From a candidate division FCPU426 bacterium (GTDB taxonomy: Bacteria; Oederibacteriota; Muellerivitia; Muellerivitales; Muellerivitaceae), in the NCBI GenBank assembly GCA_963847625.1, contig CAWKAR010000024.1:78219-142218 (forward strand): a DNA stretch of 64,000 nt. Reading direction: 5' to 3'. Numbering within the stretch: position 1 is the stretch's first letter; every line of letters starts with the position of its first letter. Below are positions 15,860-26,114 of this stretch, one piece after another. Position numbers and translations under genes: made by a program. Under the pieces are notes generated by a model, which was not told the DNA's origin, made no database searches, and saw only the letters and a list, made by a program, of their open reading frames with translations.

Positions 15860-15928
15860 CCATCCAACTGGGTCCGAATTACTTAAAATGTTGTCTGTCA
15901 GCTAGGCCCCATAAATTTACATTGTTGA

Positions 15929-17461
15929 ATGTTCACTATCGTCCGTTGCGGAGCGGGTGATCAGGCACCTTTTTTTTGGTTGAACGTCTCTGAACTTAGT
16001 GGAAGGGCGGTGGGTTGGAACTACGACGACCTCTACCGTTTGATCAACGAGACGGTCACAAGTCCAAAACCAGCCGACCCGACGGGAGGGGTGACCTACA
16101 CCTATGACCCCGTGGGGAACCGGCTAACGAGAAATTCGAGTTTAACAGGCATTTCAAACCAAAACCTCGTATATGACGGTACCGGGGATGATCGGATGAC
16201 CTCGGATGGAGCCTCACCCTCGGCAAATTATAGTTACGACCTCAACGGCTCAGTCACCCAGGCCGGGCCTTCAGGGTCTGTGACGGTTTACACCTATGAC
16301 AGCTTGGCCCGGTTGACAAGTGTTACGGCACCGAGCCTAGCGGAAACATTTATCTATGACGGGGATGGAAACAAAGACAGCCAGACTATTAACGGTGTAA
16401 CCACTAATTTCCTGGTCGATACCCATAGCCTGACCGGCTATGCACAAGTGGTAGATGAAATACAAAATGGAAGCGTAACCCGCACCTACACTTATGGAAC
16501 TAGCCGCATTTCTGAAGACCAATTCAATGGAACAAGCTGGAACTTGAGTTACTTCGGCTATGACGGTCAGGGCTCTGTTCGTTATTTAATGGACTCAAAC
16601 GGAAATATAACTGACCAACTGGACTATGATGTCTTTGGAACGCTGATAAATCAAACCCACGTGGGAACACCAACACCAAATGTTTATTTCTATGATGGAG
16701 AACAATTAGACGAGGATACCGGGAACTACTATTTAAGAGCCCGCTGGATGAATCCTGGAATTGGAAGATTTCAGACGATGGACACGTTTGAGGGTGATCC
16801 AAATGATCCTCTGACATTACATAAATATTCCTTTGGCTCTAATAATCCGGAAAATATGATTGATCCAAGTGGTAATGAAGGAGAAGAAGGTAATCCTACA
16901 ATTAATGTCCAATTACCAAAATGGCCTGCTAATGAAGTTTCTAATGTCATGAATGCAGTGGAGGGGATAGGATGGAATAATCAGCAAATTCAAAATTCTC
17001 TTTATAGAGAATGCGGAGATTTTTTATCTGGGGTTGATGACGTATTCCTTGTTTACCTGGATAAAGCTCACGTGGAAATAAACGACCAAAAATGGTCTCG
17101 AAAATACAATCTGCCACTTCCGCCAGTTCAACCTCCTTTTTTAACAGCTGGTCAACAAAAAGAACTTACTGATGATCCAAATGCTATGGACCGATATAAC
17201 AATATAGGTTTGGCTGTGGCACAAGCAAGGCAGGAAGATAGTAATGGATCTGATCCAACATTCAATGCAATCTATTTCCGTGATAGAACCACCTCTAGTA
17301 AAGTTAACACTGTAGATACAGATAAAAATGGGGTACAGCATATAAATAATTATGATGGTTTTTTACACACGCAAAGACATGTTAAAGGGCTAGAAGAAAA
17401 AAAGGTGCTTATACTCACAAATATACAGATATATGGGCTTGCACTTTCGGGAGGCCATTAA
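15929..17461 (+). CDS. Rhs/YD-repeat core with C-terminal toxin domain (N-terminally truncated, orphan module)
   Basis: YD repeats (YTYDPVGNRL), core YYLRARWMNPGIGRFQTMD, PLTLHKY..NNPENMIDPSG cleavage motif; GC drops in the C-terminal domain; homology begins mid-repeat near 15985. Confidence 0.9.
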   Translation: MFTIVRCGAGDQAPFFWLNVSELSGRAVGWNYDDLYRLINETVTSPKPADPTGGVTYTYDPVGNRLTRNSSLTGISNQNLVYDGTGDDRMTSDGASPSANYSYDLNGSVTQAGPSGSVTVYTYDSLARLTSVTAPSLAETFIYDGDGNKDSQTINGVTTNFLVDTHSLTGYAQVVDEIQNGSVTRTYTYGTSRISEDQFNGTSWNLSYFGYDGQGSVRYLMDSNGNITDQLDYDVFGTLINQTHVGTPTPNVYFYDGEQLDEDTGNYYLRARWMNPGIGRFQTMDTFEGDPNDPLTLHKYSFGSNNPENMIDPSGNEGEEGNPTINVQLPKWPANEVSNVMNAVEGIGWNNQQIQNSLYRECGDFLSGVDDVFLVYLDKAHVEINDQKWSRKYNLPLPPVQPPFLTAGQQKELTDDPNAMDRYNNIGLAVAQARQEDSNGSDPTFNAIYFRDRTTSSKVNTVDTDKNGVQHINNYDGFLHTQRHVKGLEEKKVLILTNIQIYGLALSGGH

Positions 17462-17462
17462 A

Positions 17463-18359
17463 ATGAAAATATTATCTTTTACCATCTTGATTTTATTAAC
17501 GAATCTCGTTTTTGGTCATAACATAATTAATGAAATGAAATATGTGGATTCTGCTCTTAAAGTAACTAGGTTGTTCGACGATAAAAATGAGTATAAAAAA
17601 TTAAAAATAAATATAGATAAAGAAATAAAATTTGATTCCATCCATGGTGGGCACGAAGGCGCATTTTTAATAATTAGAACAGATACAAATCGGGCGTCTT
17701 TTTTGAATTTATATTTTGATGCACAAGATAAAATTACAGTAATGATGGATGCAGACGTTGATATTAAAAAAGATGGGACGTTTATAATTGGCGATCATGG
17801 CGGCCCAATTGAAAGAATCGATGATTCCATTAAAAATTTATTAAAGTGTGTACCAAATTTATTTCTATTGGATATAGAAGTTAAACCAAATATTATTTTA
17901 AAGATGAAAGAAAATTATCTTACCGATAAACAAATAAAAATATTGAAATATATATTTGAAACCTACAGCACTTATCCCCATGGCCGTGATGAAATGGATG
18001 CAGAGAACTGGTCTATATATTGCAAATCCACCAAAAATTTAAAATCCAATCTAAATCAGGATGTTACAGAAATTTTTGCAATCTATAAAATGCCAATAGG
18101 GGTGAGAGGAAATGGTGGCATATTTGGAACTTTTAGCATGGAAAATGATAACAAGATTAATCCAATTTTGTTTGCAGGTATTAATACAGAAGATAAAACA
18201 AATAGGAAATTAGAAGTATTTGAGGATCGTGATACACCGAGAATTGGTAATTTAAAAGAAATTAATAAAGAATTAAAAATAATAAAAGATATCAATCCGG
18301 TTAAGATTCAAATCACTCGAAAAGTTAACCGCCAAATTATTTTGAAACCATTAAAATAA
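17463..18359 (+). CDS. Putative secreted immunity protein
   Basis: Starts 1 nt after the Rhs stop; very AT-rich; signal peptide MKILSFTILILLTNLVFG. Confidence 0.6.
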   Translation: MKILSFTILILLTNLVFGHNIINEMKYVDSALKVTRLFDDKNEYKKLKINIDKEIKFDSIHGGHEGAFLIIRTDTNRASFLNLYFDAQDKITVMMDADVDIKKDGTFIIGDHGGPIERIDDSIKNLLKCVPNLFLLDIEVKPNIILKMKENYLTDKQIKILKYIFETYSTYPHGRDEMDAENWSIYCKSTKNLKSNLNQDVTEIFAIYKMPIGVRGNGGIFGTFSMENDNKINPILFAGINTEDKTNRKLEVFEDRDTPRIGNLKEINKELKIIKDINPVKIQITRKVNRQIILKPLK

Positions 18360-18413
18360 TGATTTCAGGCTATTAATGACTTTTTATAATCAATTGAAAA
18401 AGAAGATGATTTC

Positions 18414-18614
18414 ATGAAACATTTAATGTTTATTTTGATTTTAGTTATTCCTCAAGGGGTGGCCTTAGGGACGGCACTGCCCACACCCGTCAACGTTCAC
18501 ATTCAACGTTCTCCCATGGACAAGATTGTCATCCGTCTCCGACAACAGAATATCCAAATCCAACGGGATTTAAGGGCGGGCAAGCTGACCAAGGACCAAG
18601 CCAAAGCCCTTAAG
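18414..18614 (+). pseudogene. Secreted helical protein gene interrupted by IS1380
   Basis: Signal peptide, RLRQQNIQIQRDLRAGKLTKDQAKALK; frame runs into the IS1380 left end. Confidence 0.55.
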
Positions 18615-20318
18615 CCCGGATTTCCCAGATGAAATTACCTTTCGAGTATAATAAGGCGTCGTTTGGCCATACAAACAAAGGTTTTTCTTCACTTTGGGGA
18701 CCACGAGAGGGGGGAATGCAATGGGTGAAAGGGGAAAAGACGCTCTTCGGGTGGTTTTTGATCCTGGTCTCAAGCTGGAGTTCCATGGCGCGAAGGTCAC
18801 TTCCGATGGCGGGTTGATTCCCTATCGTGAACTCGATGAAGCCTTTGGTTTGACTGACAGAACGGAAAACCTTCTGAGGGATCGGCGAACCGGCAAGAAT
18901 ACGCAACATACGATGACGGCGCTTTTGCGGCAATCAATCTACAGCCGCCTAGCCGGTTACGAGGACACCAACGACGCAGAACGATTGAGTGTTGATCCGG
19001 CGATGCGGCATGTGATCGGAGGACGGGCCAAGGAAAAACAAGCTGCCTCCACCAGCCAGATGGGACGTTTCGAGACGGAAGTTCTCACCCAGTCGAAGAA
19101 CCAGACCGGTCTGATTGACCTATCTGGCCAATGGATTGATGGTGTCCATGAAAAAAAGCCCATCCAGCAGATTATTCTCGACATGGACAGCTCCGTGAGT
19201 GAAACCTACGGGGACCAAGAAGGTTCCTTGTACAACGGTTACTTCGGCTGTACCTGTTACCATCCCCTGTTTTGTTTCAACCAGTTTGGCGATTTGGAAC
19301 GGGCAATGTTGCGCAACGGCAATGTGGCCAGCGCCCACGAGTGGCGGTCGGTTCTTGAACCAGTGGTTGTCCGTTATCGGGGTCTTTCCATCAGCCGTTT
19401 TTTCCGGGGTGACGCGGCCTTCGCCCGTCAGGAACTATACGAGTACCTAGAAGACGAAGGATACCTTTATGCGATCCGCCAACCCGCCAATGGCGTGCTA
19501 CAAAGAGAAATTGAGCCATTTTTGACCCGTCCCGTGGGCCGCCCTTCCCACAAGCCGGTTGTCCGGTATCACAGCTTCCAATACCAAGCCGTCAGCTGGG
19601 ACAAACCCCGCCGCGTGGTGGCGAAGATTGAGCATCACAACGGCGAACTTTTCCCGAGGGTGGGTTTCATCGTGACGAACATGCGACGACCGGCACCCCA
19701 GGTGGTGAAGTTCTACAACGGAAGAGGTACGGCTGAGCAATGGATCAAGGAGGGAAAGTACGCGATGAAGTGGACAAGACTAAGCTGCCACGACTTCGCG
19801 GACAACCAAGTAAGGTTGCAACTATTTGCACTGGCTTACAACTTGGGCAACTTCCTTCGCCGTCTAGCCCTGCCAGAACTGGTGAAGCATTGGTCGCTGA
19901 CGACGTTGCGAGAAAAACTTATCAAAATCGGAGCTAACGTTATCCGCCATTCGCGGTACGTGGTTTTCCAGATGGCGGAGGTGATGGTTACCCAACGCCT
20001 GTTTGCTGAAATCCTTGGACGGATAAGGCTACTGGCGATGGTAAGGCCGCGAGCGCCAGTACTGCGATAACCGCAGGAACACTTCATGGCTTCAACCGGA
20101 TCAACCATCGTGGGATAGGTGTGCGTTCACAACGAGAATTGGCTTTCTGGAAGGTCATTTTCAACTTTTTTGGGGCACAGAAACCCTTTTTTGGGCTCAT
20201 TTCGCTGGCCTTGGGCCAGAAAATTCCGGATACGGGTGGAAGAAGCGGGGGGGGGGAATATAATGAGAAACAAATTACCCGGCAATGTTTTCAGAGAAGG
20301 TCATCTGGGAAATTCCGG
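18615..20318 (+). mobile_element. IS1380 family insertion sequence
   Basis: 18-bp IRs CCCGGATTTCCCAGATGA / TCATCTGGGAAATTCCGG (16/18 match); 5-bp target duplication TTAAG at 18610 and 20319. Confidence 0.92.
18721..20070 (+). CDS. IS1380 family DDE transposase
   Basis: TSDGGL, GYEDTNDAERL, LDMDSS, FRGDAAF, YNGRGTAEQWIKEGK. Confidence 0.95.
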   Translation: MGERGKDALRVVFDPGLKLEFHGAKVTSDGGLIPYRELDEAFGLTDRTENLLRDRRTGKNTQHTMTALLRQSIYSRLAGYEDTNDAERLSVDPAMRHVIGGRAKEKQAASTSQMGRFETEVLTQSKNQTGLIDLSGQWIDGVHEKKPIQQIILDMDSSVSETYGDQEGSLYNGYFGCTCYHPLFCFNQFGDLERAMLRNGNVASAHEWRSVLEPVVVRYRGLSISRFFRGDAAFARQELYEYLEDEGYLYAIRQPANGVLQREIEPFLTRPVGRPSHKPVVRYHSFQYQAVSWDKPRRVVAKIEHHNGELFPRVGFIVTNMRRPAPQVVKFYNGRGTAEQWIKEGKYAMKWTRLSCHDFADNQVRLQLFALAYNLGNFLRRLALPELVKHWSLTTLREKLIKIGANVIRHSRYVVFQMAEVMVTQRLFAEILGRIRLLAMVRPRAPVLR

Positions 20319-20328
20319 TTAAGAACGG

Positions 20329-20592
20329 ACAAAGATAGCATGTATGGGCCAGCAACCTACGTAGTAGCTTTGATCAATAGTAGCTGATCAAAATAACGCG
20401 GGTTGCTCCTGGTAAGGAGCCTATCCGCATACGGAGGGCTGACCCATGGGAAATAATAGGAACAAAGATAGCATGTATGGGCCAGCAACCTACGTAGTAG
20501 CTTTGATCAATAGTAGCTGATCAAAATAACGCGGGTTGCTCCTGGTAAGGAGCCTATCCGCATACGGAGGGCTGACCCATGGGAAATAATAG
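20329..20592 (+). repeat. Tandem duplication (133-bp period) of IS110 left end plus target flank
   Basis: 20329..20459 is identical to 20462..20592 (ACAAAGATAGCATG...GGGAAATAATAG). Confidence 0.92.
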
Positions 20593-21685
20593 CACGGTGG
20601 TAGGGCTGGATGTTCATAAGGAAACGATCACGATTGCAGTTTTAAGGCCCGACAAGGATCGTCCTGATCCCTCGGTTACGGTTGAAAATCAGCCATCAAT
20701 CATTGAAAAGAAAGTACGGGAACTTAATCGCCGCCATGCCCCACTGGAATTCGTTTATGAGGCTGGGCCTGGGGGATTTGCTTTGTATAGGCAGATTACC
20801 CAATTGGGACACCCTTGTGCGGTGATTGCGCCCGCATGGATGCCGATGAAACCTGGGGACCGAGTCAAGACGGACCGAAAGGACGCAGAAAAGCTGTCTT
20901 GGTATTGGCGCATGAGGGATTTGAAAGAAGTCCGGGTACCCACGCCCGAAGAAGAATCCGTGAGGGATTTGCTGCGTGTCCGGGAAGATGTTCTCGCAAA
21001 CCAGTTGAGAGCCCGTCATCGGTTATTGAAATTCCTGCTTAGGCAAGGCCGGATTTATCGGGGTGGCAAACACTGGACCCAAGCCCATAGGGAATGGTTG
21101 AGACACCAGAAGTTTGAGCTGCCAAATCTCGTAAAGACCTATGAAGCGAATTACCGAATTTTGGCTGAGATTGACGTGCACTTGGCTGATTTGAATTGTG
21201 AAGTTGAATTGCTGGCACAAGACGAGAAATATCGAATTGCTGTCAGCTATTTGAAATGCCTGAAAGGCGTTAACACACTCACGGCCATGACTTTATTAGC
21301 AGAAAGCGGAGATTTCAGGCGGTTTAAAAACGCCCGCAGTTATATGCGATATACGGGAATGGTCAGTTGGGAAGACAGCACCGGAAGCCATGTTTACCGG
21401 GGCGGGATTGTCAAATCCGGAAATGCCCATTTGAGGCGAGTGCTAGTCCAAGGGGCATGGACCTATCAGCTACGAAGCCTTGGGAGTCCAACACTCGCTA
21501 AACGGAGAAAAGGTTGTCCCCCGGAAGTTATACATTTAGCACGAAAAGCTGATGAACGTTTGCATTTGAAGTTTCGGCGGATGGTAAGCCGAAACAAACG
21601 GTCTCAGGTGGCGGTAGTGGCCATCGCACGGGAATTGGCTGGCTTTATCTGGGCGATTGGACAGATGATCCCATCCGATCAGTAA
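20579..21685 (+). CDS. IS110 family recombinase/transposase (DEDD RuvC + Transposase_20)
   Basis: VGLDVHK, YEAGP, KTDRKDA, GMVSWEDSTG (Ser loop), IVKSGNAHLRR, VAIARELAGFIW. Confidence 0.97.
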   Translation: MGNNSTVVGLDVHKETITIAVLRPDKDRPDPSVTVENQPSIIEKKVRELNRRHAPLEFVYEAGPGGFALYRQITQLGHPCAVIAPAWMPMKPGDRVKTDRKDAEKLSWYWRMRDLKEVRVPTPEEESVRDLLRVREDVLANQLRARHRLLKFLLRQGRIYRGGKHWTQAHREWLRHQKFELPNLVKTYEANYRILAEIDVHLADLNCEVELLAQDEKYRIAVSYLKCLKGVNTLTAMTLLAESGDFRRFKNARSYMRYTGMVSWEDSTGSHVYRGGIVKSGNAHLRRVLVQGAWTYQLRSLGSPTLAKRRKGCPPEVIHLARKADERLHLKFRRMVSRNKRSQVAVVAIARELAGFIWAIGQMIPSDQ

Positions 21686-21711
21686 TAGATCCGATGAGAA
21701 GAAAAAGAAGG

Positions 21712-21920
21712 ACGAGCTCTGATTTCAGGAGCGTGGCGCGGCACGGAGAACCCTCGACGACCCCTTGTGCAATGAAGTCTTATTTCATGACGCACGGACA
21801 AAGATCGAGGCAGCTCCCGACGACAGGTCATCATGCGTCCCTGCCCTTTGGGGTAATACGCGAATATCAGTTTGATCAACCGTCGGAAATGGCTACGCTC
21901 TTGGAATCAGGGCTCTGTCG
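21712..21920 (+). ncRNA. Putative bridge/seek RNA of IS110 copy 1
   Basis: Long closing stem (GAGCTCTGATTTCAGGAGCGTGGC / GCTACGCTCTTGGAATCAGGGCTC, several G-U pairs) enclosing two stem-loops whose internal loops match target and donor sequences; ends approximate. Confidence 0.75.
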
Positions 21921-21980
21921 TGCTGGTCCGTGAAAAGACCAACACCCTAGAATCTGAAGGTTGACTGGCCCATACATATC

Positions 21981-22997
21981 AGGGGTCAGGCCTACAATTT
22001 ACACTTTATAACCACTGATTATTTAATAAAATACCGATATGCCAAGGCCAAAACGGATTCATTATGAAGGGGCCGTGTATCACGTCACTTCCCGCGGGAA
22101 TGAGCGCCGCAAGATAGTGATGGATGACTCGGACCGATGGTTATTCCTGAGAATTCTCGGGGAAATGATCGGGGAAAACGGGATCGTATGCCACGCCTGG
22201 GTTTTAATGGACAATCATTACCATCTTTTACTGGAAACCCCGCAAGCCAATTTATCCGTGGCCATGAAACATCTGAACGCCCAATATACCCAGCGATTCA
22301 ACAAGAAACACCACAGGACTGGTCATTTATTCCAAGGCCGGTATAAGGCCATCGTTATCGAGAAGAACAGTTATTTACAGGAATTATGCCGGTATGTGGT
22401 ATTGAATCCCGTCCGGGCCAAGATGGCCAAGCAACCGGGGGGATGGAAATGGAGCAGTTACCGGGCCACGGCAGGCCTGGAAAGGCCGGAACCATGGTTG
22501 GAGGTGGATTGGATCTTGGGACAATTTGGGAAAGAGAGGAAAAGAGCCCAAAAGGCCTATAGGGAATTTGTGGAAGAGGGAATGGGGAGAAAAGAAACGC
22601 CATGGGAAAGGTTGCATTCCAGGGTTTACCTGGGCGGGAAAGAATTTTTAGACCATGTCCATGAAATGGGACAAAAACACAAACACTTGGATATTCCGAA
22701 ATACCAAAAACATGTGGTGAAACAAAACCCGGAAGCCTTATTAAAAAAGGTGGGGGAAATATACGGTATGAAGCCCGGGGAAATACTGAAAGCGGGGAAA
22801 AGAAGGAGCGAAGCGAGGGAGGCGGCGGTATATTTGCTGAAGAAGGAAGCGGGATTAAGCCTGAGGGAAATAGGGGAAAGAATGGGAGTGGGTTTTTCAG
22901 CGGTGGGGAACCAATGGGCAAAGGTCAAAAAGAAGCTGGGGACGGATAAAAGGTTTGCTCAAAGACTTGTAAAGTGTAAATTGTAGGCCTGACCCCT
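21981..22997 (+). mobile_element. RAYT-like element bounded by perfect 28-bp inverted repeats
   Basis: AGGGGTCAGGCCTACAATTTACACTTTA (21981..22008) and its reverse complement (22970..22997); the gene's stop codon lies inside the right IR. Confidence 0.8.
22039..22986 (+). CDS. REP-associated tyrosine (Y1 HUH) transposase with C-terminal DnaA_C-like HTH
   Basis: YHVTSRGNER, MDNHYHLLL (HUH), GHLFQGRY, YVVLNPVRA, WSSY; C-terminal AAVYLLKKEAGLSLREIGERMG. Confidence 0.9.
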   Translation: MPRPKRIHYEGAVYHVTSRGNERRKIVMDDSDRWLFLRILGEMIGENGIVCHAWVLMDNHYHLLLETPQANLSVAMKHLNAQYTQRFNKKHHRTGHLFQGRYKAIVIEKNSYLQELCRYVVLNPVRAKMAKQPGGWKWSSYRATAGLERPEPWLEVDWILGQFGKERKRAQKAYREFVEEGMGRKETPWERLHSRVYLGGKEFLDHVHEMGQKHKHLDIPKYQKHVVKQNPEALLKKVGEIYGMKPGEILKAGKRRSEAREAAVYLLKKEAGLSLREIGERMGVGFSAVGNQWAKVKKKLGTDKRFAQRLVKCKL

Positions 22998-23057
22998 GAT
23001 ATGTATGGGCCAGTCAACCTTCAGATTCTAGGGTGTTGGTCTTTTCACGGACCAGCA

Positions 23058-23266
23058 CGACAGAGCCCTGATTCCAAGAGCGTAGCCATTTCCGACGGTT
23101 GATCAAACTGATATTCGCGTATTACCCCAAAGGGCAGGGACGCATGATGACCTGTCGTCGGGAGCTGCCTCGATCTTTGTCCGTGCGTCATGAAATAAGA
23201 CTTCATTGCACAAGGGGTCGTCGAGGGTTCTCCGTGCCGCGCCACGCTCCTGAAATCAGAGCTCGT
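23058..23266 (-). ncRNA. Putative bridge/seek RNA of IS110 copy 2
   Basis: Reverse complement of 21712..21920. Confidence 0.72.
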
Positions 23267-23292
23267 CCTTCTTTTTCTTCTCATCGGATCTA

Positions 23293-24399
23293 TTACTGAT
23301 CGGATGGGATCATCTGTCCAATCGCCCAGATAAAGCCAGCCAATTCCCGTGCGATGGCCACTACCGCCACCTGAGACCGTTTGTTTCGGCTTACCATCCG
23401 CCGAAACTTCAAATGCAAACGTTCATCAGCTTTTCGTGCTAAATGTATAACTTCCGGGGGACAACCTTTTCTCCGTTTAGCGAGTGTTGGACTCCCAAGG
23501 CTTCGTAGCTGATAGGTCCATGCCCCTTGGATTAGCACTCGCCTCAAATGGGCATTTCCGGATTTGACAATCCCGCCCCGGTAAACATGGCTTCCGGTGC
23601 TGTCTTCCCAACTGACCATTCCCGTATATCGCATATAACTGCGGGCGTTTTTAAACCGCCTGAAATCTCCGCTTTCTGCTAATAAAGTCATGGCCGTGAG
23701 TGTGTTAACGCCTTTCAGGCATTTCAAATAGCTGACAGCAATTCGATATTTCTCGTCTTGTGCCAGCAATTCAACTTCACAATTCAAATCAGCCAAGTGC
23801 ACGTCAATCTCAGCCAAAATTCGGTAATTCGCTTCATAGGTCTTTACGAGATTTGGCAGCTCAAACTTCTGGTGTCTCAACCATTCCCTATGGGCTTGGG
23901 TCCAGTGTTTGCCACCCCGATAAATCCGGCCTTGCCTAAGCAGGAATTTCAATAACCGATGACGGGCTCTCAACTGGTTTGCGAGAACATCTTCCCGGAC
24001 ACGCAGCAAATCCCTCACGGATTCTTCTTCGGGCGTGGGTACCCGGACTTCTTTCAAATCCCTCATGCGCCAATACCAAGACAGCTTTTCTGCGTCCTTT
24101 CGGTCCGTCTTGACTCGGTCCCCAGGTTTCATCGGCATCCATGCGGGCGCAATCACCGCACAAGGGTGTCCCAATTGGGTAATCTGCCTATACAAAGCAA
24201 ATCCCCCAGGCCCAGCCTCATAAACGAATTCCAGTGGGGCATGGCGGCGATTAAGTTCCCGTACTTTCTTTTCAATGATTGATGGCTGATTTTCAACCGT
24301 AACCGAGGGATCAGGACGATCCTTGTCGGGCCTTAAAACTGCAATCGTGATCGTTTCCTTATGAACATCCAGCCCTACCACCGTGCTATTATTTCCCAT
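23293..24399 (-). CDS. IS110 family recombinase/transposase, copy 2
   Basis: Identical to 20579..21685 except one V>I change (VLVQG vs VLIQG). Confidence 0.97.
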   Translation of the reverse strand: MGNNSTVVGLDVHKETITIAVLRPDKDRPDPSVTVENQPSIIEKKVRELNRRHAPLEFVYEAGPGGFALYRQITQLGHPCAVIAPAWMPMKPGDRVKTDRKDAEKLSWYWRMRDLKEVRVPTPEEESVRDLLRVREDVLANQLRARHRLLKFLLRQGRIYRGGKHWTQAHREWLRHQKFELPNLVKTYEANYRILAEIDVHLADLNCEVELLAQDEKYRIAVSYLKCLKGVNTLTAMTLLAESGDFRRFKNARSYMRYTGMVSWEDSTGSHVYRGGIVKSGNAHLRRVLIQGAWTYQLRSLGSPTLAKRRKGCPPEVIHLARKADERLHLKFRRMVSRNKRSQVAVVAIARELAGFIWAIGQMIPSDQ

Positions 24400-24574
24400 G
24401 GGTCAGCCCTCCGTATGCGGATAGGCTCCTTACCAGGAGCAACCCGCGTTATTTTGATCAGCTACTATTGATCAAAGCTACTACGTAGGTTGCTGGCCCA
24501 TACATGCTATCTTTGTCCCGTGTGAATTGATTACTTAAATATTGGCTTATTTAAACGGCATAAAGAGGTGTTAA

Positions 24575-25612
24575 GTGATAAAAAAATTTTTTATATATAT
24601 AGTTGTTGTTGGCTTTTCGTTACCTGTGCTTGCTGAGTCACCAGTGGCGCCGCCAGATAATGGTCTTCCTCCACTTCAACAATCGAATAACAATTTGACC
24701 TCTGCCCTAGGTAATGATTATTTCCAAAACGTCTATGATGACCTTCCCCCTGCTCAAATAATGGACGCGAGTTTACTTCCAAAACCAACCCCTATAGTTA
24801 CCTATCACAATTATTCTAATGGGAGCAGTATTCCAATTCGTCAACCAACACCCACTTTTTGCCAGGAAATTCAACAAGCCAGAAAAAACGATCCTCATTG
24901 GGTTAGTGATTTTTCAACCGTTATTTCTCATGGAAAGGGGGATTTAATGTTGCGCTCTGATATTTTTTCTTCGGATTTAATAATATTACATCGTCTTTTT
25001 AATGACCCATTAGCTGATGTTTTTATGAAGTTAACTGCTGCCGCAGGAATCGCTGATTTATGGGACCAACTAAATAAAAAACATCCTTCAGATAAAGCCA
25101 GAGCCAATTTTGAGGCTTGGACAAAATATTTCACGCAGTCATGGAATTCGGTAGATATGGGGCAAGCTTGGGACGTAAATGATAAATGTATTGCAACCCG
25201 AAACCTCCTTTATGGGTTGGAAAAGAATCTCAATAGTGATTATGCAAATACCCCGGAAGGTAAAACGGAAGCGAAAAGTAGTCCCCATTGTTACGATCCC
25301 ATTGATTTGATTGCGAAGGGGATGGCCTTGAAAGGGAAATTAGTCTGCGGAAGATTTAGAGTAATCCAAAAAATTGATGAAAAAAGTTACCTTGTAGGAC
25401 TGCCATATACAGGAGAACCGAGTATTGACAATAGCTCATTTGTGGTTTTTGGTAACTCGAAAACGGATAGCGATTTTGATTATTACGATAATGAAATGGT
25501 GAATCTCATAGTTATCGTCGCAGGAACTTATAGCTATCTGACTGTGACCGGAGCCAATGCCACAGTTATTAAACTCAAAGATTGGAAAAAAAATACAGCA
25601 AACAATAACTAA
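24575..25612 (+). CDS. Hypothetical secreted protein (AT-rich)
   Basis: 345-aa ORF, signal peptide, Pro/Thr patches, C-terminal GTYSYLTVTGANATV. Confidence 0.6.
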   Translation: MIKKFFIYIVVVGFSLPVLAESPVAPPDNGLPPLQQSNNNLTSALGNDYFQNVYDDLPPAQIMDASLLPKPTPIVTYHNYSNGSSIPIRQPTPTFCQEIQQARKNDPHWVSDFSTVISHGKGDLMLRSDIFSSDLIILHRLFNDPLADVFMKLTAAAGIADLWDQLNKKHPSDKARANFEAWTKYFTQSWNSVDMGQAWDVNDKCIATRNLLYGLEKNLNSDYANTPEGKTEAKSSPHCYDPIDLIAKGMALKGKLVCGRFRVIQKIDEKSYLVGLPYTGEPSIDNSSFVVFGNSKTDSDFDYYDNEMVNLIVIVAGTYSYLTVTGANATVIKLKDWKKNTANNN

Positions 25613-25635
25613 TTTGTTGGCCCTCACACAAAAAA

Positions 25636-25789
25636 GTCCAGGCCAACATTTGACACTTTACAAAAAAGCTCGCCCCTTAGAAACTTATTTATGCCTTGAC
25701 TCAAGAGAATCCGTTATGAAGGTGCCGTTTACCATGTGACGAATAGGGGTAACGAGCAAAAAATCTTTTGGGATGATACAGATCGGTGA
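25636..25789 (+). pseudogene. Degenerate RAYT element remnant (decayed IR plus 5' gene fragment)
   Basis: GTCCAGGCCAACATTTGACACTTTACAA resembles the RAYT IR; from 25691 reads MP*LKRIRYEGAVYHVTNRGNEQKIFWDDTDR*, versus intact MPRPKRIHYEGAVYHVTSRGNE. Confidence 0.8.
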
Positions 25790-26114
25790 AAAAAGGGGCC
25801 TGGCCAACGCAAAAGGTGCTTGGCACCAAGCTCCTCAGCTTGTTGCAGGGCCCCGCTCCGCATGCAGACCTTCCTTAAACCATTCAAAGAGGTCTGTATA
25901 GTACCGATTTCCATCAATAATCCCGGCCATAGGCCGGGATTAACACATGGATGAATCGGCACAGCGAGTGGCAGTTGAACACTCAACACTTTAAATATTA
26001 ATTAGCTCCTACAATAGAGCTTTAAACATTCGCAAGATAAGTTTTTCCACTTGGAAAGCCTTATCGCGTACTAGAGTTTCAAAAGAGACGTATAAAAGAC
26101 GGGAGGGGAATGAA

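Follow-up and report, generated by a model that had tools for sequence, protein, structure and literature searches.

Mirror-image copies of an IS110-family element with predicted target-matching guides in both terminal inverted repeats of a TIRtron

The habit of IS110-family insertion sequences (IS) of settling in the repeats of other elements is already known, both from the ends of Tn21, where IS4321 and IS5075 sit (PMC8269217), and from repeats of the repetitive extragenic palindromic (REP) type, the GTAG hairpins targeted by IS621, ISPa11, ISPpu9 and ISPpu10. TIRtrons are elements whose terminal inverted repeats (TIRs) have the consensus GGGGWSAS (PMC3733652) and whose TIRYT gene is equated with TnpAREP subclass 2.1.2 (PMC6006769). 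Genes of this type, like other REP-associated tyrosine transposases (RAYTs), are taken as mostly single copy, with 6.3% duplicates, and as 'unable to duplicate' (the group PMC3733652, PMC6006769 and PMC5581495). Here we report that in a 64,000-nt stretch of the genome of a candidate division FCPU426 bacterium (GenBank assembly GCA_963847625.1, contig CAWKAR010000024.1, positions 78,219 to 142,218; hereafter the window), two copies of one IS110-family element lie in mirror orientation, one in each TIR of a single TIRYT gene (Table 1). TIRtron ends are a new class of target for the family, and we consider it highly probable that the arrangement arose by two independent insertions of a guide-programmed element at the TIRtron tips.

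The two inverted arms (20459-22011 and 22967-24519) match over 1553 nt with three mismatches, at 20461, 21446 and 22009. That at 21446 is the sole mismatch within the IS and, as a valine/isoleucine change, the sole amino-acid difference between the two recombinases, so that the original prediction of a mirror-oriented pair at identical position, with transposases one residue apart, holds. Once the IS and one AG core are taken out, the left site reads GAACAA-AG-GGGTCAG and the right site GGACAA-AG-GGGTCAG (RRACAA-AG-GGGTCAG), in agreement with empty repeats. The expectation that excision would restore an inverted repeat at both gene ends was therefore sound, although its boundary has to be moved: the element measures 1513 bp, with one AG core in addition, instead of 1509 bp, and the restored site ACAAAGAT-AG- proposed earlier is discarded, since ATAG follows the core in every copy having it, at all junctions compared, and is thus part of the IS left end.

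A search for insertions of other copies at unrelated sites found all nine right junctions in the genome reading AG-GG[G/A]T[C/T]AG. Because the sequence diverges beyond this motif, the 27-bp repeat next to the element is not IS sequence; the remaining seven copies border different members of a 27-bp repeat family, which is also present without the IS in the window's genome and in relatives. Empty alleles are common in the latter: of 40 full-length TIRYT matches in the fetched loci, 28 carry the motif at both ends under a strict pattern (in several of the other 12 the TIRs are variant or interrupted), and all of these 28 except the window's own, 27 matches, lack an IS110 end within 22 nt outside. 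It is scarcely credible that misassembly created the mirror copy or that the 27-bp repeat belongs to the IS right end. The assembly is in 63 contigs, three of them ending inside this IS, and a consensus error might account for the 133-bp near-duplication at 20327-20459. However, three positions distinguish the arms, empty alleles have a TIR at both ends and other IS copies border different sequence after GGGTCAG. In addition, one contig of sequencing run X2 covers 22874-23089 with four differences, reading from the gene end through the right TIR into the end of the IS. The read data are short pieces from four DNA runs of one study (shares 0.07-0.28), which may not be independent of the source assembly, and no piece spanning the whole unit was found among those listed.

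The flanks of the window's TIRYT gene are 27-bp, non-palindromic TIRs and not the GTAG-footed hairpins of classical REPtrons (RAYT groups 2/3). Their GGGGTCAG motif, found at both ends in the window and in relatives, fits GGGGWSAS, as in the TIRYT/TnpAREP subclass 2.1. The earlier suggestion that an RNA-guided IS110 targets the ends of another mobile element is thus borne out by junctions, guides and covariation, whereas its identification of the target as a REP gives way to a GGGGWSAS-type TIR of a TIRYT element. When the genome was searched with profiles after removal of the IS, 41 merged hits to the TIR family were obtained at E<0.05, of 51 listed; by eye, these are often clustered, direct or outward-facing, and near other IS, PIN-like or low-GC genes.

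By its recombinase and its junctions alike, the element belongs to the IS110 family. Both recombinase open reading frames score above cut-off for Pfam PF01548 and PF02371 and for NCBIfam NF033542 (204.6 against a cut-off of 140), having a DEDD RuvC-like domain and a PF02371 domain; an AG core stands at both junctions, there is no target duplication, and IS removal leaves sites resembling empty TIRs. In the description of IS1111-type elements, subterminal repeats of 11-13 bp are extended by 7 nt on the left and 3 nt on the right (PMC11187229), and the same layout is found here, with 13-bp repeats and a non-coding region of about 295 nt downstream of tnp. Placed by pairwise identity alone, the recombinase is 36-37% identical to those of ISEc45 and ISSso6 over nearly the full length and 24-26% identical to those of IS4321/IS5075 over about 80% of the length. 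Since it is nearer to the former, we keep the label IS1111-like to the anatomy and do not file the element as a core IS1111 member. The nearest named recombinases are those of the cluster of ISEc45, ISSso6 and ISCARN28, which are adjacent in the source-data matrix of PMC11187229 and whose own guides and target differ from those of this IS; among solved structures, only ISCro4 and IS621 were matched, weakly. Like IS4321/IS5075, the element combines IS110-family membership and subterminal repeats with a fixed position in the terminal repeats of another element, a safe harbour, but whereas their host is a Tn3-family transposon, its own is a HUH/Y1 TIRtron whose TIRs form a dispersed family. With IS621, ISPa11, ISPpu9 and ISPpu10 it shares RNA-guided use of a repeat family tied to a Y1 transposase; it differs from them in addressing a non-palindromic TIR tip, and from IS621 also in that the predicted RNA lies in the 3′ non-coding region and not at the left end.

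The genome holds nine full or nearly full copies, each differing by 0-2 bases from the left copy, so that the expansion of the IS is recent, as the original prediction had it for the insertions in the window. To these are added two left ends: one stands where contig C26 ends, and the other, which had been overlooked, is a 125-nt stub at 20335-20459. When the ends of the element are joined in silico, TTGACT, 17 nt and TAGCAT form the -35/-10 boxes of a candidate junction promoter; the circle joint was not found among contigs from the four DNA runs, which are short pieces. Two more IS110 types occur in the genome, namely a 50%-identical pair with its own guides (C3 32913-33992 and C13 3913-4992) and three copies of about 29% identity (C14, C21 and C30), of which the C21 copy lies just inside a TIR.

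A bridge/seek RNA is predicted in the 3′ non-coding region, with a fold of -90.1 kcal/mol (z -5.66) that none of 200 shuffles equalled. Both target guides sit in loops of this predicted RNA, GACCCCT in one arm and GGACAAAG downstream of it, and their order, in which the top-strand match comes first (5′) and the bottom-strand match second, is that of IS1111-type seekRNAs (PMC11187229). Relatives carry other sequences at the equivalent scaffold positions, which fit their own flanks. Among 57 non-coding-region hits, loci with a recognisable end and a guide anchor were kept, giving 29 right and 16 left junctions. On the right side (11 guide types) a mean of 4.20 of 5 non-core positions match, compared with 1.56 when permuted, a value reached in none of 100,000 shuffles; on the left (6 guide types, with one row, L063, paired with the flank of a stub) the mean is 3.58 of 6, compared with 1.61 when permuted, and the observed pairing ranks first among the 720 permutations. 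Fold and covariation together point to the target-matching guide RNA expected of an IS110 element. A sibling in genome G001, 92% identical, has a right guide for AGTATTG and is inserted at AGTATTA, so that guides and target both differ from the window's, while four metagenome siblings with a readable right junction (89-90%) have an unchanged right guide and sites reading GGGG[T/C]. Within the genome, 47 sites lie at most one mismatch from the guides, G.T wobble being permitted on the left; five of the 15 in TIR-family copies are occupied, and none of the 32 elsewhere.

Guides of the G001 sibling fit ACCC-AG-TATTG, a motif of a tandem AACCCAGTA-type repeat family present in both genomes, and a related IS left-end stub stands at a AACCCAGTA-type repeat in C39 (genome C39 50393; also L096, with flanks in L073, L078 and L079). 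Another sibling (L109, 1891-2315) breaks off at position 426, with GGGTCAG directly abutting an internal A-rich AG site; this looks like aberrant excision at a pseudo-target.

Several points weigh against guide-programmed insertion at TIRtron tips. Only six of the nine occupied junctions score as TIR family at E<0.05: the C39 junction is a TIR by context, C55 is weak (E 0.89) and C19 resembles a TIR only on visual inspection. The left-guide match is poor at some occupied sites (one of six positions in C39, or two with wobble, and two of six in G001), candidate right-donor guides match over 3-4 nt at best, and the permutation tests used related rows, so that their p values overstate the significance. 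The IS110 model is built on sequence comparison and a predicted RNA fold, the part given to TIRYT in moving the TIRtron is likewise conjectural, and no piece covering the left junction and the stub was found among the read pieces listed. Finally, a further AG, beyond the reach of the guide and not encoded by it, is present at nine of nine occupied sites and at 14 of the 47 near-matches, so that a second target determinant, as reported for ISPpu10, or selection may be at work. This AG also bears on the proposal that the preference for TIRs comes mainly from the TIRYT protein or from DNA structure, through opened ends or protein-protein recruitment, and that the guides merely follow. Its retention at all nine sites, the absence of occupied sites among the 15 near-matches that lack it outside long open frames, and the target-structure gate reported for ISPpu10 would all suit that proposal. 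We nevertheless regard it as improbable, because guides track targets in relatives with non-TIR targets, making base pairing the main determinant, and because an added gate would fit guide-programmed insertion too.

The middle gene is, from its domains and TIR features, a probable TIRYT (RAYT group 1, with a fit to TnpAREP subclass 2.1.2). Its protein scores above cut-off for Y1_Tnp and NF047646, and the HYH and YVVLNP motifs of the RAYT signature are visible; a C-terminal Bac_DnaA_C-like helix-turn-helix (PF08299, residues 232-284, E 8e-6) was counted as present at 26.2 bits, below the cut-off of 31.5. Such a C-terminal domain on a Y1 HUH core is shared with TIRtrons (PMC3733652), TnpAREP subclass 2.1.2 (PMC6006769) and RAYT group 1 (PMC5581495), as are GGGGWSAS TIRs at both ends, a TIR overlapping the 3′ end of the gene and dispersed solo TIRs. 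Relatives of the protein occur in 28 of the 41 genomes searched, G000 included. In G001, seven TIR-to-TIR copies of 1015-1040 bp (those fetched, out of 22 matches in that genome) are 97.9-98.8% alike with flanks 16-38% identical, and G016 has three copies about 98% alike, flank identity over the copies of both genomes being 12-38%. Comparison of these near-identical copies in unrelated flanks shows a TIRtron that apparently multiplies as a ~1015-bp TIR-to-TIR unit, in the manner of an IS, in contrast to the mostly single-copy TIRYT genes published; TIRYT would be the enzyme moving it. Where a TIR is joined inside a known element, the letters before GGGG number 5, 7, 8, 8, 8, 10, 11 and 13 at eight junctions and 24 at a ninth, judged against a more distant reference, from which the mobile tip would lie roughly 7 nt or more outside GGGG. 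Natural outer tracts of TIRs vary.

By eye, the inner end of the left TIR gives a TTTACA -35-like box 16-17 nt upstream of a -10-like box in many relatives, and the box was seen upstream of TIRYT in L028, L030, L077-L083 and genome C22. The window's mismatch at 22009 turns TTTACA into TTTATA, which may weaken expression of TIRYT.

Under guide-programmed insertion, guides in the 3′ non-coding RNA, if expressed, would direct the recombinase to the 13-nt site (A/G-rich)ACAA-AG-GGGTC at TIR tips. The IS would exit a copy as a circle, as its family and the junction promoter suggest; in the circle that promoter would drive the recombinase and the RNA, and recombination would take place at the AG core of any well-matched TIR tip (circle and insertion steps are supported for IS110 by PMC11208160 and PMC13626964). 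TIRs would offer a plentiful, mostly intergenic safe harbour, maintained by a multiplying host element, whose ends would carry along 5-13 nt from outside GGGG; the IS would insert within this brought-along tip and spare the conserved TIR. In the window the IS lies inside the presumed mobile tip, about 6 nt from its end, with the conserved TIR intact. The new outer tract of an occupied TIR is CATATCA, from the IS end. As the conserved TIR is whole and only the variable outer ~6 nt are exchanged, disabling of the TIRtron ends appears not evident. A TIRtron would present two sites in inverted orientation, and two orientation-specific, independent insertions would give the mirror layout. No special mechanism has to be invoked for double occupancy, of which two independent hits are the best reading, a doubly filled TIRtron being unsurprising when about a third of good TIR sites are filled. 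Two other TIRtrons were seen with a sibling IS, and in both it fills one end only: the L097 and L101 siblings lie in the left TIR, and the right TIRs there are without IS110. The TIRtron in C39 has its left TIR occupied and its right TIR empty, with GG replacing the AG core.

It is very unlikely that the IS-TIRYT-IS block has been retained because it works as a composite or invertible unit. The 1.55-kb near-perfect inverted repeats would allow homologous flipping of the 955-bp middle, and, from what is known of the family, DNA could also be inverted by an excision-type reaction that involves an outer junction and the inner one opposite it. However, a flip would merely reverse the gene within symmetrical ends and so change little, and siblings fill one end only. 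An IS110 donor is a right-end/left-end junction. Both outer ends of the block are left ends, which leaves it no donor, and the ~4-kb block occurs once in the genome, so a composite transposon is unlikely, and neither this part of the original prediction nor its invertible unit is borne out. Excision-type reactions of IS621 are, besides, reported to be much less efficient than insertion (PMC13626964). Hitchhiking on the TIRtron would need TIRYT to cleave at the distant original tips.

Immediately outside the left TIRtron tip stands the stub of a third IS copy, and IS fragments abutting a TIR tip are also found in G072 and G006. These fragments suggest truncation by a TIR end, and the most likely origin of the stub would be the joining of a TIR end into an older IS copy. 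IS110 recombination at an internal AG was rejected because the right side fits neither guide; plain slippage would require an added change and is less favoured, though possible. In L101 the IS-derived tract and GGGGTC are tandemly duplicated, which resembles the short duplications of the tip that L089, L033 and L035 show at ends without an IS. This one case hints that an occupied TIRtron end is still processed; an IS110 origin of the tip duplications is possible. We offer tentatively, and with a little more doubt than belief, a wider view in which TIRtrons would be autonomous HUH transposons using TIRs, unlike IS200/IS605 and sedentary RAYTs. Their cuts would fall about 7 nt beyond GGGG; they would move over short distances, delete adjacent DNA and leave solo TIRs dispersed around accessory genes. 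They would also be in two-way conflict with this IS110: the IS would be programmed to the host tip, and host ends would truncate IS copies or depart with no more of the IS end than its last ~7 nt (as in the one duplicated tip, L101). On its other side the stub adjoins an IS1380 element (NF033539; window 18615-20318), which has inverted ends of 18 bp, is flanked by TTAA on either side and has a right end with matches at about 10 further places in the genome.

Table 1. Positions of the IS110-family copies, TIRtron parts and predicted RNA features in the window
Feature	Position	Strand	Remark
Target half-site, core and 125-nt left end of third, truncated IS	20327..20459	+	Fused directly to TIRtron outer tip
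Outer tip, left TIRtron end (left half of IS target)	20460..20465	+	Displaced 1.5 kb from its TIR
Left IS110-family copy, 1513 bp	20468..21980	+	Lies between AG cores 20466-20467 and 21981-21982
Left subterminal inverted repeat, 13 bp	20473..20485	+	7 nt from end, core included
DEDD bridge recombinase gene, 368 aa	20579..21685	+	In left IS copy
Predicted bridge/seek RNA	21706..21915	+	3′ non-coding region; long stem closing two looped arms
Right-target guide GACCCCT	21759..21765	+	Reverse complement of core and GGGTC
Left-target guide GGACAAAG	21796..21803	+	Left half-site
Likely left-donor guide	21862..21870	+	Putative; matches IS right end and core; kept in 50%-identical relative
-35 box TTGACT	21961..21966	+	Pairs with left-end TAGCAT at 17-nt spacing only in circular form (in-silico junction)
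Partner of left subterminal inverted repeat	21965-21977		3 nt from right IS end
Left TIRtron TIR (GGGGTCAG...ACTTTA)	21982..22008	+	
TIRYT gene, 315 aa, Y1 HUH transposase	22039..22986	+	Last codons within right TIR
Right TIRtron TIR	22970..22996	-	
Right IS110-family copy	22998..24510	-	Gene 23293-24399; differs from left copy by one base
Outer tip, right TIRtron end (left half of IS target)	24513..24518	-	Perfect guide match
Degenerate TIR	25633..25661	+	Precedes truncated TIRYT gene (about 25690-25790)

TIRs in these genomes also hold nested inserts. Long-type TIRs have a ~25-bp hairpin unit at a fixed point, the loop of which carries further inserts of about 30 or 170 bp (genome C21, C26, C32, C33, C34 and C57; window 15919-15976 and 25790-25995; L077, L079, L080 and L082), and one G001 TIRtron was seen both with and without the 25-bp unit. 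A different element, with end motif GGACTTCCCCCG, interrupts TIRs just inside GGGG (L097 at about 2595, L030 and L046), and TIRs therefore attract other IS too. Single accessory genes are bracketed by solo TIRs, direct or outward-facing, in a cassette-like fashion (genome C13 116151-124913, C33, C39, C49 and C57; window 15919-25995); in the window, such TIRs enclose an RHS fragment together with its low-GC partner gene, and likewise the 345-aa gene at 24575-25612.

A literature search covering mostly openly accessible papers, and not published target logos, found no report of IS110 in TIRtron ends, of TIRtron mobility or of two-way damage. In the parts of the TIRtron literature available, IS110 in TIRs is not mentioned, and the terms IS110 and IS1111 occur 0 times in the available text of PMC3733652; the files searched from the supplement of PMC11208160, a part of the whole, gave no match to the motifs and IS names sought. 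It is possible that a previously catalogued IS has a GGGGTCAG target. Biochemistry of TIRYT was likewise not found in the available parts of the TIRtron and RAYT papers compared.

The IS described here is a further AG-core recombinase, and with it TIRtron ends join the repeat classes to which IS110 guides are tuned. Its relatives form a natural reprogramming series within one lineage, in which 92%-alike recombinases have different guides and targets, and which should help in studying how guides change. Beyond this habit of IS110, the multiplication of the TIRtron as a unit is the part most worth following. RAYT-like genes are treated in the literature, as far as it was available, as mostly sedentary, and the TIR-to-TIR copies make transposition of TIRtrons, and the position at which they cut, directly testable; the tip about 7 nt outside GGGG at the junctions bears on where that cut would fall.

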